From: Scenedesmus sp. PABB004
Lineage: Eukaryota
Direction of reading: 5' to 3'
Length of the DNA: 64,000 bases
Assembly: GCA_014905635.1 (NCBI GenBank)
Contig: JABVCE010000003.1
Coordinates: 1,240,001-1,304,000, forward strand
The position numbers and the translations under genes are program-made. The notes beneath the pieces are model-generated. The model saw only the letters and a program-made list of their open reading frames with translations. It was not told the DNA's origin and made no database searches. Of this stretch, positions 2,622-64,000 are shown one piece after another (positions within the stretch are counted from its first letter, which is position 1; each line of letters begins with the position of its first letter).

Positions 2622-3176
2622 GCTGCTGGCAGGTGATCAGCCCTCTGGAGAGCGCAAACGGGCGGCGGCGTGGCGGCGCGGCGCGGCGGCCGCGCAGGCA
2701 GGTGACGCGCCCGCCCGCCTGCCGCGCCGGCTCTCAACAGGCCGGCCCACGTGCAGCCCCGTCGCTCTCCCACACGCCGAGCGGTGCCCCGGACCGCGAA
2801 GCTGCGCGCTGCGCCTGCAGCGGCCGCTCCCGCCACCCGTCGATCAAAAGGGCGCGGCGCAACGGATCGCTCGAAAGGGCGCCTCCCGCTACCAATCAAC
2901 GCGCAGCCTCTTGTTCCCGGCCTGCGGGGCCGGCAGCGCCCAGGTGCGGCGCGGGCGGGCGGTGCGCCGCGCCGCTGCTGCCGCGGCGCCCTGCCGCCGC
3001 AGCGGCGCGCCCCCGCAGCCATGCAGCGTGCACGCTGCGATCCTTAACATAGGTGCACGCCTGCAGCGTTGCAGCCCGCGCCATGCGCCGCCGCCCGGCG
3101 CTGCTGCTGCGCTCGGCGCGAGCGCCCACGCCCGCGCCGCGCCGCGCCGCCCTGCCGCACAGCGCCGCCGGGGGCC

Positions 3177-4307
3177 ATGGCGGTGGCCGTCGGGGACCGC
3201 GTGGTGGTCGCCAAGCAGCGGGCGACGGTGCGCTACGTCGGGCCGGTGGACGGGCAGGACGGCACCTGGGTCGGGGTGGAATGGGACGACCCGGCGCGCG
3301 GCAAGCACGACGGCACGGCCGGCGGGCGGCGCTACTTTGCGTGCGCGTCGGACGCGCCCATGCCGGCGTCGTTCGTCCGTGCCGCCAAGGTCGCCCCCGG
3401 CGGCGGCGTGGCCGACGCGCTGCGGCTGCGCTACACCAACCAGCTCGGCGAGGGCGGCGGCGCGGCGCCGGGCGACGCGCAGGCCTTCCTGACCGCGCCG
3501 GGCGGGCGGCGCAAGGTGTGGGTGGAGCTCGTGGGCGAGGAGGCCGTCACGGCGCGCCTCAGCCGCACGGAGCTGCTCACCGCCGCGCGGGTCGTGGGCG
3601 CCAACGTCTCGCACGCGGTGCGCGGCAGCGGCGGCGGCGCGAGAGGGGGGGGGGGCATCGCGCGCCGCCGCCGCCATCGCGCGCCGCCGCCGTCACGCGC
3701 CCGGCCGCCGCCGTCGCGCGCGCCGGCAGGGCCCGCCCGGCGCGCTCGCGGCGGCGGCGCCCGCGCTGCAGCAGCTCGACCTCAGTGACAACCTCATCTC
3801 TACCTGGGCGGCGGCGGCGGCCATCTGCGGGGAGCTGCCGGCGCTGCGGGCGCTCGTTCTCAGCCACAACCGGCTGGCGCTGCCGCGCGGCGTCGCCGAG
3901 GCGGCGCGCCTGCCGGCGCTGCCGGGGCTGCGCTGCCTCGTGCTCAACCAGTGCGGCGTCACGTGGCAGCAGGCGCGGCGCACGGGGGCGGGCCGCGCGA
4001 GGCGTGCGCGGGCAGCTCGCAGGGGCTCACAGGGACTCGTGCGCCGCCGGCGCCGCCGCCGGCGACGCAGGTGGGCGTGCTGCTGCGCTGCCTTCCAAAC
4101 CTGGAGGAGCTGCACGTGTGCGGCAACGGCATCACCAGCCTGCGCATCGACCTTGATGAGCCGCAGCAGGAGCCGCAGGGCGCCCTGCAGGCGCTGCCCG
4201 GCGCCGCGAGCCTGCAGGTGAGCGCGGTCCGCGGCGGCGCCGCAGCGCGCCGCCCTCCCGTTAAAACGGCGCGCCGCGCCGTTTTGCCATGCCAAGCCAC
4301 CTGCTGA

Positions 4308-4360
<53 letters not shown>

Positions 4361-4953
4361 GCTGGGGCGCAGGTGCTCGGGCTCGAAGACAACGCCATCT
4401 CCGACTGGCAGGAGGTGGTGCGGCTCGCCGGTCTGCCGGCGCTGCAGCGCCTGCACCTCAGCGGCAACCCGCTGCCCGCGCTCGCCTACCCGGCCGCGCC
4501 CGTGCCGCCGGACGCGCTGCTCGCCGCCGCGCCGCCGCCGCGCGGCGCCGCCGACGCGTCGCGCCCGCGCGGCGGCGGCGTGGACGGCGGCGGCGCCCCG
4601 TTTGCGAGGCTCGAGGCGCTGCTGCTCGGCGGCTGCCTGCTCGCCAGCTGGGGCGACGTGGACGAGCTCAATGCCTTCCCCTGCCTGCGCGAGACGCGGC
4701 TCAGCGGCAACCCGCTGTTCGGCGGCAGCGCCGGCGGCGGCGGGCGGCGCTTCGAGGTGCGGCGCGCGCAGGCGGCGCGCGCGGGCGCCGCGGGGCCCAG
4801 CCTTCAGCCGCGCGTGCGCGCGCAGGTCATCGGGCGCGTGGGCGGGCTGACGCTGCTCAACGGCGCGGACGTGAAGCCGCGTGAGCGGCGCGACTGTGAG
4901 CTGCGCTACCTGCAGAGCATCCTGGCCGACGGCGCCGACGCGGCGCGGCAGGG

Positions 4954-4996
<43 letters not shown>

Positions 4997-5621
4997 CAGC
5001 AGCAGCAAGAGCATGAGCAGCAGCAGGAGCAGCGGGCACACCCGCGGATGGCGGAGCTGCTCGCCAAATACGGGCAGGTCAGGTGAGGCCACGGCGCGCT
5101 GCGGCTGCGGCGGCACGGCGCTGCGGGGCGCCCCGCAGGCGGCGCGCGCTCGTGCGTGCGTGCGCCCACGTGCGCTGCGCCCGCCGCGCCCCGCCCTGCG
5201 CAGCGCCGCCGCGGCGCGGCCCGCGGCGGCGGGCAGCGCGCTGCGCGCGTCCGCCGCGCAGGTGCGCCTCGTGTGCGGCGCCGCGTCGGTCGTCAAGAAG
5301 CTGCCCGGCAGCACCACCGTGGGCGCGCTGCGCCTGCTCGCGGCGCGGCTGTTCCGGCTGCCGCCCGACCAGCTGTCGCTGACGCTCGAGCGCGACGCCG
5401 GCCGCGGCGGCGAGGACGTCGGCGGCGACGACACCAAGCCCCTCGCCTTTTGGGACGTCGCCGACGGCGCCACCATCGCCGTGGGCCGGCTCGACGCGGG
5501 CGACGCGGGCGCGGCGGGCGCGGCCGCGGCCGCCGCCGCGGCGGCGCGCGAGGCCGCCGCGGCCGCGCAGCTCGCGTCGGGCGAGGCGCTCCGCGCGGCG
5601 GCCGCGGCGGCGCTGGGCTGA
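3177..5621 (+). CDS. TBCE: Tubulin-folding cofactor E (CAP-Gly, LRR, ubiquitin-like), about 6 exons
   Basis: CAP-Gly motif YVGPVDGQDGTWVGVEWDDPARGKHDG; LRRs (LDLSDNL, LVLSHN, LHLSGNPL); ERRDCELRYL; C-terminal UBL KKLPGSTTVGALRLLAARLF. One GC-AG intron at 3973. Confidence 0.9.
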
Positions 5622-27790: not shown

Positions 27791-28848
27791 ATGCAAACTG
27801 TCATGACAATCGCGCGTCCGCGGCACCAGCCCCGCGGCACTCGACACGCCGCTCCAGCCGCTCGGCGCCGACGACGCCTCGGATCTGGCCCGCCGAGCCC
27901 GCCCGCGCCAGCAGCACCGCCGCCCACCCGCCGCGCGCCCGCCATGCGCCTCACGGCCGCGTCCGCGCCGGGCGCGAGCGCCCGGCAGCAGCGTCGCGCC
28001 GCGCCCGCGGCGCCGCGCGCGGCAGCCGCGCCGACGGCAGCACCGCCGCTGCGGCGGCAGACGCCCGCGGCGCCGCCGGCGGAGCTCGCCGACGCGGCGC
28101 CGCCTGCGCCGGGCGACACCGTGGTGGGCCGCGTGATCAGCACCGGCCCGCACGGCTCGCGCGTGGAGCTGGCGGGGGGGCGCGTCGGCTACCTGCCGCG
28201 CTGCCTCTCGCCGCTCGCGCTGGACGCGACCGGCGCGTACGCGTGGGGCCCGCCCGACGCGGAGCAGCAGGGCCTGCTCCACCTGCAGCGCGAGTTTACC
28301 GTGCAGCGCTGCGACGACGCGCGCGGGCCGCTGCTGTCGGCGGCGCACGCCGACTGGGCGATGGTCTACCGCCGCGCCGCGCAGCTGTCCGAGCTCTGCG
28401 CCGACGGCCTCGCCGTGCTGACCGCGCGCGTCGTCGGCCGCAACGCCGGCGGCCTGCGCGCGGTGTGCGCCGGCGCCGTCGGCTTCATCCCCAAGAGCTA
28501 CCTCCCCCGCACCGCCCGCGCCGCGTTCCACCGCCAGGCGCGCGCCGCGCCCGGCGCCGCGCCCGGCGCGTCGCGCCCGGCGCGTCGCGCCCGCCGCGGC
28601 GGCACGTGCGGCGGCCTCACGCGCGCCGCGCGCCGCGCGCGTGCCGTGCAGGCCGACGACGAGCTGCTGGGCATGGAGCTGCCGGTGCTGATCGAGGAGG
28701 TGGTGCCGGAGCAGCGCCGCATTGTGCTGAACAGCGTCGCCGCGCTCCACTCGCGCCTCGCCGCGGTCGCGCCCGCGACGCTCGTGCGCGGGACCGTCAC
28801 CCAGGCGCGCCGCGCGGGCGCGGCGCGCCCGCGCCCCCGCGCCCGGCC

Positions 28849-61539: not shown

Positions 61540-64000
61540 ATGGCGCGGGGGACGGCGGGCAAGCGCAAGGCGGCCCCGGCGGTCGCAGGGGGGGGCGGGG
61601 GGCGCTTCCTCAGCAAGGGCGCCAAGAAGCGCAAGGCGGCGGGCGACTACTTCGATGCCCAGGACTCGGACCCGGAGGAGGAGAAGCACGCGGGCCGCTA
61701 CGACGTGAGCGCGCATGTCGGCCGCCGGCGCGGGCCTGCCGGCGCGCGTGCGCGCGCCCGGGAGCCGCGGCAGCGGTCGCCCGCGATGCAGCGGATCCAC
61801 GGCCAGCGACCGCGCCGCGCAGCCCGGCATGGGCGCCGCCGCCGCGCCGCGGCGGGCCCGGCCGCCGCGCGCTGCTGCTGCCGCCGACGCCGCCGACGCC
61901 GCCGACGCCGCCGACGCCGCCGCGCCGCCTCGCGCGCCGCAGCGCGTGGAGAACTACGAGTATGAGATGCCCAGCGACTTTGAGGACGAGGAGATCGACG
62001 AGGAGCTGGCGTTCACCGCGGAGGACAAGAAACAGTACGGCGGCTGGTTCGGCGACGCGCCCGCGCCGAGCGGCAGCGCCAGCGACGGCGAGCCCGGCAG
62101 CGACGGCGGCGGCGGCGGGCCCGGCGGCGCGGCGCGCAAGCGGCCGCGCAGCGAGTTCGACGCCCTGCACAGCAGCGACGAGGAGGAGGACGGCGGCGGC
62201 GAGGGCGGCGAGGGCAGCGAGGAGTATGACCAGGCCGAGCTGGTGCGCGGTTGGGGATGGGTCGCTGGGTGCCGGGGGACCACGCACGGCGGCAGGCTGC
62301 GGGTGGCGCCGCCCGCCCGCCCGCACGCGCGCGCGCCGCCGACCGCCGCGCCCGCGCGCCCGCCCGCAGGAGGCGCTGTGGGAGGCAGAGGAGGCCGGCG
62401 GCGGCGCGGGCGCGCAGCAGCCCAGCGGCGGCAGCGGCGGCGAGCAGGGGCTGAGTGATGATGAGGAGGAGGACGAGGAGGAGGAGGAGGAAGAGGAGCT
62501 GGATGATGAGCAGCACAGGTGGGTCGCGGCAGCTCAAGCGGGCGGGGCAGCGCGGGCGCGCGCAGCGGCGCGGGGCGCGCACGCGGCCGGGCCGCAGCCC
62601 GCCGACGCCTGGGCCGCCCTGCACCGTGGCGCGCGCACAGAGCCATGCTGGCGGCGGCGCTGGGGCGCGACCCGACGGCCGGCGGCGACGGCGGCGGGCG
62701 CTCGCGCAAGGCCGCGGCGGTCGCGCGCAACACCGTGGTGGCCGAAGCATACCCAGAGAGCGAGGCGCACGCTGGCGGCGGAGGTGCGTCGACCGCGCTG
62801 CAGCGCCGGCCGCAGCGGCAGTGCAGCGGCGTCAGGCGCAGGCGCAGCAGCGGCACTGGCAGTGCCAGCGGCAGCCGCAGCCGCAGCGGCGGCAGCCAAC
62901 ATGCAAGCACTGCGTGTAAGGTGGCCGCGGCGTGTTCAGTGCCCGGCTGTCTAAGGGTTTGTGCGAGAGCAGAGCGGCCGATCCAAACGGCTGCAGGGCA
63001 CGGCGGCAGGTGCACCGATCCTTCGCCCTGCCGTGGCGCATGACCCCTGCAGCAACCTGTCGGCCGCACACGCACGCGCCGCCGCGCCACGCGCGCCCAC
63101 GCACGATGGCCGCGGCTGCGCTTGAGTGCTCACCACGTGCGCTGCCGCCGCCGCCGCCGCCGCCGCCGGCCGCCGCGGCGCGCGCGCGCACAGGCGCCGG
63201 CGAGCTGCGGCTGGCGGACCTGCTGGACGGCCTGGGCGCCGGTGGCGGCGCCGCGGCGGCGAGCCTGGGCGGCGCGCGGAAGCTGCTGGAGAAGCTGGAC
63301 CGCGCGGGCGCGCCCGTGTCGGCGCCGCTGCCGCGCAACGTCGCGGAGCGGCTCGAGCGCAAGGCGGGCTACGAGGACACCAAGCAGGACGTGACCAAGT
63401 GGCAGCCGATCGTCAAGGCGCGGCGGCGCCGCGCCGCGCCGCGCGCGCGGGAAGGGGGCTGCGGCCGCCAGCCCCCACCTGCCCGCCTGCCCGCCGCGCT
63501 CGCCGCGCTCGCCGCCCACGCGCGGTCCGCCCGCCGACCCCGCCGCCGCGCAGGCCAACCGCGAGGCGCCGACGCTGCGCTTCACGTCGGCGCGGCACGA
63601 GGTCGCCGCGCCCGCCGCGACGCCCGCGGCGCTGGTGGAGGGCTTCACGCCCAACGCTGAGGACCCGCTGGAAGCCCAGGTGCGCTGCTGCGCCCACTGG
63701 CACCCCCGGCGCGGCTGCCCCACGCTCTGCCGTGCGCGCGTCTGCAGCGAGCGGCCTGCCGCAACGCGCTGCCGCCGCTGCGGCGAACCCCGCGTGCAGG
63801 TCGCGGCGCTGCTGAGCGCGGCGGGGAGCGCGAGCGCGGCTGCCATGGAGGAGGCGGAGCAGGCGCTTGCAGAGAAGGTGGGCTCAGGGCACGGGCGACG
63901 GCCCTGGCGCGCGCCACGCACAGCGCGCGGCGCCGGCTGGACGCCCGCGGCGCCGCCGGCCGACCGCGCCCGCCCGCGCGCGCGCGCGCGCCTGCCCGCC
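61540..64000 (+). CDS. UTP14: U3 snoRNA-associated protein 14 (5' part; continues beyond the window)
   Basis: Acidic N-terminus (YEYEMPSDFEDEEIDEE), EAYPESE and APLPRNVAERLERKAGYEDTKQDVTKWQPIVKANREAPTLRF. Confidence 0.9.
62900..63073 (+). ncRNA. Intronic box H/ACA snoRNA candidate, U70/SNORA70-like (predicted SSU rRNA pseudouridine guide)
   Basis: Lies in the 410-nt UTP14 intron 62784-63193. 5' pocket GUGUA + AAGGG; H box AGAGCA at 62966-62971; 3' hairpin GCGGCCGA/TCGGCCGC followed by ACA at 63068-63070. Confidence 0.75.

Follow-up and report, generated by a model that had tools for sequence, protein, structure and literature searches.

A candidate box H/ACA snoRNA of the CrACA41 family in a UTP14 intron of Scenedesmus sp. 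PABB004, with a predicted target in helix 28 of the small-subunit rRNA

An intron of the UTP14 gene of Scenedesmus sp. PABB004 contains two GC-rich hairpins flanked by words that resemble the boxes of an H/ACA small nucleolar RNA (snoRNA), and the question is whether a guide RNA is encoded there and which site in ribosomal RNA (rRNA) it would serve. The intron lies near the end of the 64,000 nucleotides (nt) of contig JABVCE010000003.1 that were analysed, here called the window. The sequence at 62905-63073 (+ strand) very probably specifies a canonical two-hairpin box H/ACA snoRNA of the CrACA41 family, processed from the UTP14 intron 62784-63193, whose 5' pocket would guide formation of a pseudouridine (Psi) in the small-subunit (SSU) rRNA. 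We regard it as a real and ordinary H/ACA snoRNA, of a family already known from Chlamydomonas.

Direct reading of the letters and a constrained fold gave a hairpin-hinge-hairpin-tail arrangement with internal pockets, for which the following features were assigned (L015, R1 and CrACA41 are introduced further below):

62905..63073, + strand: predicted H/ACA snoRNA, orthologue of the CrACA41 family (from constrained fold, covariance model R1, covariation and the borders of the L015 copies; 5' end approximate, 3' end taken as ACA plus 3 nt)
62907..62964, + strand: 5' hairpin (direct reading and constrained fold)
62907-62910 and 62961-62964, + strand: lower stem of the 5' hairpin, GCAC with GTGC
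62911-62918 and 62953-62960, + strand: strands of the 5' pocket, with GUGUA at 62914-62918 and AAGGGU at 62953-62958
62919-62927 and 62944-62952, + strand: upper stem of the 5' hairpin, AGGTGGCCG with CGGCTGTCT, nine pairs including three G.U
62966..62971, + strand: H box AGAGCA, which fits ANANNA, 13 nt past the upper stem
62974..63067, + strand: 3' hairpin (direct reading and constrained fold)
62974-62981 and 63060-63067, + strand: lower stem of the 3' hairpin, GCGGCCGA with TCGGCCGC
62982-62989 and 63054-63059, + strand: strands of the 3' pocket, ..CAAACG and AACCUG
62990-62998 and 63045-63053, + strand: upper stem of the 3' hairpin, GCTGCAGGG with CCCTGCAGC
63017..63024, + strand: conserved 8-mer GAUCCUUC, part of the 11-nt loop that caps the 3' hairpin; it complements GAAGGAUC close to the 3' end of the SSU rRNA and recurs in the printed CrACA41 entries
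63068..63070, + strand: ACA box, 14 nt past the upper stem and followed by 3 nt up to 63073

The box spacings (13 nt in hairpin 1, 14 nt in hairpin 2) are within the H/ACA norm of about 13-16 nt. An earlier note, made from this DNA alone, had described the same stems, pocket strands, H box, ACA and spacings, and all were recovered in place by direct reading. The GC content around the RNA is about 80%, with a local dip to 0.62 at the candidate against roughly 0.72-0.95 in the adjoining windows. Two sequencing runs, probably of DNA, were compared with the window and gave mostly low-complexity, GC-rich matches; 62912-63090 is spanned without a difference by a 191-nt contig of run X1, which shows the presence of the DNA only. 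Among the runs listed for the stretch, none was an RNA run.

The host gene was assigned from the exons on either side of the intron, which are:

62641..62783, + strand: UTP14 exon ending ...VVAEAYPESEAHAGGGG, 5' of the host intron (sequence and frame; resembles the stretch that precedes the alignment in the relatives P0002, P0004 and others)
62784..63193, + strand: host intron, 410 nt, phase 1, GAG/GTGCGT ... ACAG/GC (frame restored; the junction of P0002 agrees)
63194..63417, + strand: UTP14 exon (G)AGELRLADLL...KWQPIVK (Pfam PF04615; 11 relatives)

The open reading frame (ORF) piece 63196-63660 matched the Pfam family Utp14 (PF04615; E 3.2e-13, 49.6 bits against a cut-off of 30.2) over profile positions 41-111; the other four ORF pieces tested against Pfam gave no family. 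All 11 matches to the exon carry PF04615, the top named relative being from Raphidocelis subcapitata (67% identity), and two transcriptome proteins share 75-76% identity; these relatives place the window in a chlorophycean green alga close to Sphaeropleales. Joining 62783 to 63194 keeps the frame (G + GC = Gly), and the protein of the spliced transcript of P0002 (...ESEARAGGGAGGAELRLSDLL; ...EAYPESEARAGGGAGGAELRLSDLL) supports this junction. UTP14 had been proposed as the host in the earlier note, and the PF04615 match on the next exon together with the splice agreement with P0002 bears this out; on the sequence evidence, the host of the RNA is UTP14.

The UTP14 intron that follows ...KWQPIVK in the window (63418-63553) is apparently of the GC-AG type (AAG/GCGCGG ... 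GCAG/GCC), and the exon join K/ANREAPTLRF across it agrees with the relatives.

Homologues of the RNA were sought at UTP14 loci of other algae. A metagenome scan with a single exon peptide matched 597 stretches, with no relative among them; a second metagenome scan, with the exon alignment A1 as query, yielded 19 UTP14 loci (L002-L020). At locus L015, whose exons most resemble the protein P0010 of the chlamydomonad Edaphochlamys, the orthologous UTP14 intron (4513-4983) holds a homologue at 4640-4809. It has CAAACGGCTGC, CGATCCTTCG, GGCGCATGA and AGCAACCT in common with the window RNA, carries ACA at the same place and an imperfect H box (AAAGUG), and its unconstrained minimum-free-energy (MFE) fold alone gives hairpin-hinge-hairpin-ACA. 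A second copy lies in the next intron (5423-5592) and matches the first at every one of 170 nt. Their identity runs from 1 nt before the 5' stem to 1 nt after ACA, and the flanks are unrelated; since it stops at the borders of the RNA, the functional unit is thereby delimited, and the two copies point to a recent duplication, or gene conversion, of what seems to be exactly the RNA unit. At 3147-3170 of the same locus, 5' of the first mapped UTP14 exons, the 3'-pocket words CAAACGG and GCAACCT stand 10 nt apart, as a hairpin remnant or by chance.

A covariance model built from the window sequence alone with its constrained fold (R1) detected both L015 copies in full length (29-30 bits, E about 3e-4) and, at E<=10, nothing over the other 17 UTP14 loci. 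In the resulting alignment, which is fitted to the model's own structure and holds effectively two independent sequences (the two L015 copies are one lineage), 95.5% of the cells are standard pairs and 20 of the 46 pairs are changed on both sides; in the lower stem of the 3' hairpin, six of the eight pairs are changed on both sides between window and L015. None of 500 shuffles reached any of five measures of this alignment, and a slid control (partners moved by 1-3 columns) gave 31-48% pairing and 2-5 pairs changed on both sides. Two MAFFT alignments (A2, A6), which put the stems of the 5' hairpins out of register, were excluded from these counts.

A third lineage was reached by a scan for the 5' pocket (GTGTA, a stem of at least 7 pairs, AAGG) on both strands of the window and L002-L020 (182,883 nt). 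Only 11 matches were obtained, all on the UTP14 sense strand: one in the window, two in L015 and eight in L017-L019, three near-identical contigs of one organism (GC 0.5). A stricter expression (AAGGG and a perfect H box) did not pick up the homologues. The 63-nt 5' hairpin of L019 has the lower stem of the window (GCAC/GUGC) and another upper stem, with UUGUGUA / AAGGAAA as its pocket; ACAGUG or ACAUGA stands in the place of the H box. The L019 copies at 2225, 2807 and 3389 lie between the exon ...VVDEAYPESEYNLNPG... (..EAYPESEYNL..), which ends at about 1520, and the exon ...GEELTLADLMHGLGG... (..EELTLADL..), which starts at about 3905, and hence in the intron orthologous to that of the window, while the fourth copy (5197) occupies the intron after ...KWQPIVK, as does the second copy of L015. 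With filters off, R1 put the four copies of L019 at the top of its ranking over 3.6 kb (E 0.06-0.37), and with a model of window and L015 together (R2) all eight copies in L017-L019 were the best non-training matches across all loci (E 0.0086-0.2). No homologue was found in L002-L014, L016 and L020 by blastn, nhmmer, R1, R2 or the pocket scan.

The letters GUGUA and AAGG are invariant in the window, L015, L017-L019 and the printed CrACA41 entries, and the flanking stems differ. UTP14 is, as judged from these loci, the host of this RNA in the window, in L015 and in L017-L019. Conservation in orthologous UTP14 introns, the lack of which the earlier note had named as grounds for giving up its proposal, was found in two other algae.

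The L019 units (2211-2362, 2793-2940, 3375-3490 and 5183-5350; also in L017 and L018) combine a near-identical 5' hairpin with three different 3' hairpins, and every L019 copy is preceded by a C-run. Guide hairpins have here been shuffled as modules inside the introns of a single gene.

The CrACA41 family of Chlamydomonas reinhardtii was reportedly first described by Chen et al. in 2008. A short L015 motif led to the entries CrACA41-1 to -6 in the supplements of PMC5122169, where they are listed with a length of 170 nt, the H box (AAAGTA) at 59 and ACA at 165; those shown with coordinates fall inside some 1.4 kb, all on the same strand of a single scaffold. The table row for CrACA41 in that paper names no target. 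The blocks CTGTGTACAAT, TTGAAGGAG, GTCGCAAAAGT, GGCAAACGGC, GATCCTTCG, GCATGAGC and GCAGCAACCTCTGGC are common to these printed entries, L015 and the window, the homology to CrACA41 being judged by eye. By homology over both hairpins, the window RNA is a predicted member of the CrACA41 family.

For the 5' pocket, a target was searched in eukaryotic rRNAs, which were taken from rDNA contaminants of bacterial assemblies, located by Rfam, and are not those of this alga itself. In all seven SSU rRNAs the window guide forms 6+5 base pairs (bp) with GCCCUU[UG]UACAC (unpaired letters in square brackets), and the L015 guide forms 4+6 bp at the same uridine, likewise in 7/7. The predicted target U is position 1634 in three SSU rRNAs of 1808 nt and stands directly 5' of GUACACACCGCCCGUC / GUACACACC, in helix 28. 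The equivalent Arabidopsis 18S U1630 has been mapped as a Psi (Sun et al. 2019), for which Supplementary Table 3 of PMC8351944 gives the snoRNA as 'nd', U1692 as the human equivalent and none in yeast; human Psi1692 is placed in helix 28 in a passage of PMC10227372. The match in the SSU rRNA gains weight because it falls on a mapped Psi site, because an independent guide is predicted there in O. tauri and because the guide letters are invariant. The interpretation of the earlier note, that the 5' pocket guides the conserved SSU uridine corresponding to Arabidopsis Psi1630 and human Psi1692, is supported as a prediction, and the pairing that it proposed (GCCCUU and UACAC paired, UG left free) is exactly that found by the target scan in 7/7 SSU rRNAs. 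Of its proposed correspondence to U70/SNORA70, the part concerning the site stands (the RNA being a predicted functional analogue at Arabidopsis U1630/human U1692), and membership in the Rfam family SNORA70 does not.

Human SNORA70 is known as the guide of Psi1692. The reverse is given in PMC7760958, where SNORA64 is assigned to U1692 and SNORA70 to U4975 of 28S. Since the snOPY-based O. tauri table in PMC7671301 implies SNORA70, the two papers disagree on the guide of human 18S U1692, and more confidence can be placed in the site than in which human RNA serves it.

Several results weigh against this interpretation and were set against the homology, in addition to the origin of the rRNAs, the by-eye judgement on CrACA41, and the fitted alignment and two independent sequences behind the pair counts. 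On the + strand, the RNA has an MFE of -81.6 kcal/mol, where shuffles give -76.0 +/- 4.0 (z -1.38) and 19 out of 200 are at least as stable; on the - strand, z is -0.77. Among shuffled guides, 570 of 2000 reach >=11 bp somewhere in one rRNA set, other rRNA sites score 10-12 bp with the actual guide, and the 3' pocket strand AAGG of L015, L019 and CrACA41 offers only 4 bp. Neither folding energy nor complementarity to rRNA, taken alone, exceeds chance in DNA of about 80% GC. The check by Infernal with Rfam SNORA70, as suggested beforehand, was negative for the window and for the L015 and L019 stretches: at the gathering score there was no match of any Rfam family, SNORA70 included, in the whole window; at E<=10, there were nine non-significant matches in 62700-63300 (none to SNORA70, none spanning the candidate), none in the L015 stretch, and one irrelevant match, not to SNORA70, in the L019 stretch. 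Furthermore, L002, the closest metagenomic UTP14 (65% identity), has no homologue in its orthologous intron of 253 nt. Accumulation of the RNA, assembly of a ribonucleoprotein and modification in this alga, and also the ends of the RNA, are inferred. The homologues in orthologous introns and the compensatory changes nevertheless make the RNA more than chance, despite the weak single-sequence tests. The window RNA would then be an unannotated non-coding RNA that was overlooked by Rfam-based annotation.

The 3' hairpin appears to be under constraint: the pocket cores CAAACG / AACCU are identical, and the apical loop is conserved, in the window, L015 and the printed CrACA41 entries. The earlier note had named no confident target for this pocket, and the rRNA scan agrees, yielding a sole recurrent candidate, AAGGUU[UC]CGU near the SSU 3' end (5+3 bp, in 6/7 SSU rRNAs, at chance level), the U of which is the third U of GGUUUCCGUAGG. 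No site in the rRNAs used has the full CGUUUG complement beside AGGUU, with 1-3 unpaired nt allowed. The loop 8-mer GAUCCUUC is perfectly complementary to GAAGGAUC, which in all six SSU rRNAs that reach the 3' end lies 5-12 nt before it, 18 nt downstream (3') of the pocket candidate.

On this ground the RNA might, in addition to or in place of Psi guidance, act as a chaperone of pre-18S folding or processing, the 3' hairpin docking on the 3' minor domain of pre-18S and not (only) serving as a Psi guide. The pocket CAAACG/AACCU would dock at the foot of helix 45 on its 5' side, on AAGGUU[UC]CGU, and the apical loop would base-pair through GAUCCUUC with GAAGGAUC, which is 5-12 nt away from the 3' end of mature 18S, so that both flanks of helix 45 would be engaged, and helix 45 and site D would be held open or closed during steps of the SSU processome; if so, these would be steps in which the host product UTP14 takes part. 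The conserved loop and pocket cores and the perfect complement in 6/6 SSU rRNAs are consistent with this view, as is the finding that GATCCTTC occurs nowhere else in the window and L002-L020 (182,883 nt, both strands) and that an 8-mer complement no farther than 40 nt from the pocket candidate turned up for only 69 of 20000 shuffled loops. The view was, however, formed post hoc; an 8-mer complement anywhere in rRNA is common (4909/20000 shuffled loops), the pocket match of 5+3 bp is at chance level, the 3' hairpins of L017-L019 differ and are without the motif among the three lineages compared, and the part of the Arabidopsis 18S table in PMC8351944 that covers U176x-U178x lists no Psi there, predicted or mapped. 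We consider docking or chaperoning by this hairpin unlikely, and treat the complementarity of the loop to the 18S 3' end as a lead to a second function.

It is less likely again that the RNA is a genuine CrACA41-type H/ACA RNA whose 5' pocket has another substrate or is an orphan. At the site CCUU[UC]UGCGCG in the large-subunit (LSU) rRNA (position 78 of L063_LSU3), for example, the window and L015 guides both reach 10 bp (4+6, with G.U pairs), and matches of 10-11 bp are common for such G/U-rich guides according to the shuffle test. This LSU match needs 2-3 wobble pairs and no reported Psi was found at it, whereas the SSU site is paired almost wholly by Watson-Crick pairs in 7/7 SSU rRNAs, is a mapped Psi in Arabidopsis and human, and is also predicted, in the tables of PMC7671301, for the independent O. 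tauri RNA with the same pocket letters. That GC-rich hairpins and box-like words came together by chance and no RNA is made, as the z values (-1.38 and -0.77) and the lack of an Rfam match would permit, is scarcely credible given the homologues that two other lineages have in the orthologous intron, with 20/46 compensatory pairs, the identical L015 duplicate that ends exactly at the RNA borders, the local GC dip, and the publication of the family as a Chlamydomonas snoRNA in the supplements of PMC5122169.

An intronic H/ACA RNA is released by debranching and exonucleolytic trimming and is protected by the H/ACA proteins. For the preferred interpretation, a guide of the CrACA41 family for the SSU Psi, this implies that after splicing and debranching of the UTP14 intron, exonucleases would trim it to the RNA protected by Cbf5/dyskerin, Nop10, Nhp2 and Gar1. 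The 5' pocket would then pair with GCCCUU and UACAC of pre-18S, leaving U-G free, and Cbf5 would isomerise the unpaired U, the equivalent of Arabidopsis Psi1630 and human Psi1692. UTP14 as a ribosome-biogenesis host would couple the supply of the guide to ribosome synthesis.

The interpretation would supply a guide RNA for a conserved SSU Psi near the decoding region, the guide of which is 'nd' in the Arabidopsis table of PMC8351944. The snoRNA and its SSU-processome host intron have been kept together across Chlorophyceae (Sphaeropleales-like and Chlamydomonadales-like), with variation in copy number and in the 3' hairpins; because the association is kept while the copies vary, this is a good case for the co-evolution of snoRNA and host and for the duplication of guide modules. 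In the literature searched, neither the Sphaeropleales-like orthologue nor the UTP14 host intron in three lineages was found in print, although the host may already be named by Chen et al. (2008) or in supplements. The link of CrACA41 to U1630/U1692 was likewise not in print there, and the target may already be given by Chen et al. (2008) and in supplements; the variation in copy number and 3' hairpins and the complementarity of the loop to the 18S 3' end were not in print either.

Other observations were made that are unrelated to the snoRNA. On the - strand of the window, three copies of a 30-nt context, tcatgacagttt-GCATGA-tctctctcagcg, occur near 27794, 31233 and 32584, as a dispersed or tandem repeat. 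The contig L001 of the IMG/VR viral collection has at 3632-4543 a terminal match of 912 nt to the eukaryotic SSU model (1-1831, 534 bits); this SSU-like sequence is strongly shortened or internally deleted and was not used. The exact eukaryote-type SSU motif is present in at least 45 contigs (L021-L065) of assemblies labelled bacterial or archaeal, and several of the contigs hold whole eukaryotic rDNA units and are therefore contaminants of those assemblies.

Three known systems were compared with the window RNA. The printed CrACA41 entries are alike in their length of about 170 nt, the two hairpins and the place of ACA, in the 5' pocket GUGUA / AAGG and the 3' pocket cores CAAACG / AACCU, and in the hinge, the apical loop GAUCCUUCG and the bulge GCAUGA. 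They differ in the stems, by compensatory changes, in the H box (AGAGCA in the window, AAAGTA in CrACA41), in the 3' pocket strand of hairpin 1 (AAGGGU with 6 bp in the window, AAGG with 4 bp in CrACA41) and in number (one copy in the window, six listed for CrACA41); in being multi-copy and clustered on one strand, CrACA41 is like L015 and L019.

Human SNORA70 (U70, RF00156) is alike in that the conserved SSU uridine it is known to serve, also according to the O. tauri table in PMC7671301, is the one predicted for the window RNA; PMC7760958 names SNORA64 for this uridine instead. It is unlike in that the RF00156 model has no match to the window RNA, L015 or L019. The human SNORA70 gene lies in an intron of RPL10, not of UTP14. 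The window RNA is a predicted functional analogue of SNORA70 and not a member detectable by sequence or structure.

Ot-HAsno20 of O. tauri, as given in the tables of PMC7671301, is an expressed H/ACA RNA of 152 nt (about 5 transcripts per million), the 5' stem of which is predicted by snoGPS to act on 18S U1598/U1597 and which is listed as a functional homologue of human SNORA70. The BLASTN homologues listed for it by the authors fill two Mamiellophyceae columns only, with none in Trebouxiophyceae or Chlorophyceae. In comparison with the window RNA, Ot-HAsno20 is unlike in that it lies in an intergenic cluster and not in an intron (PMC7671301), and its 3' hairpin, judged by eye, looks unrelated. 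It is alike in the pocket letters of the 5' hairpin (..GUGUGUA / AAGGGA) and in the equivalent SSU U, and CrACA41 and Ot-HAsno20 would hereby be linked as carriers of the same guide.

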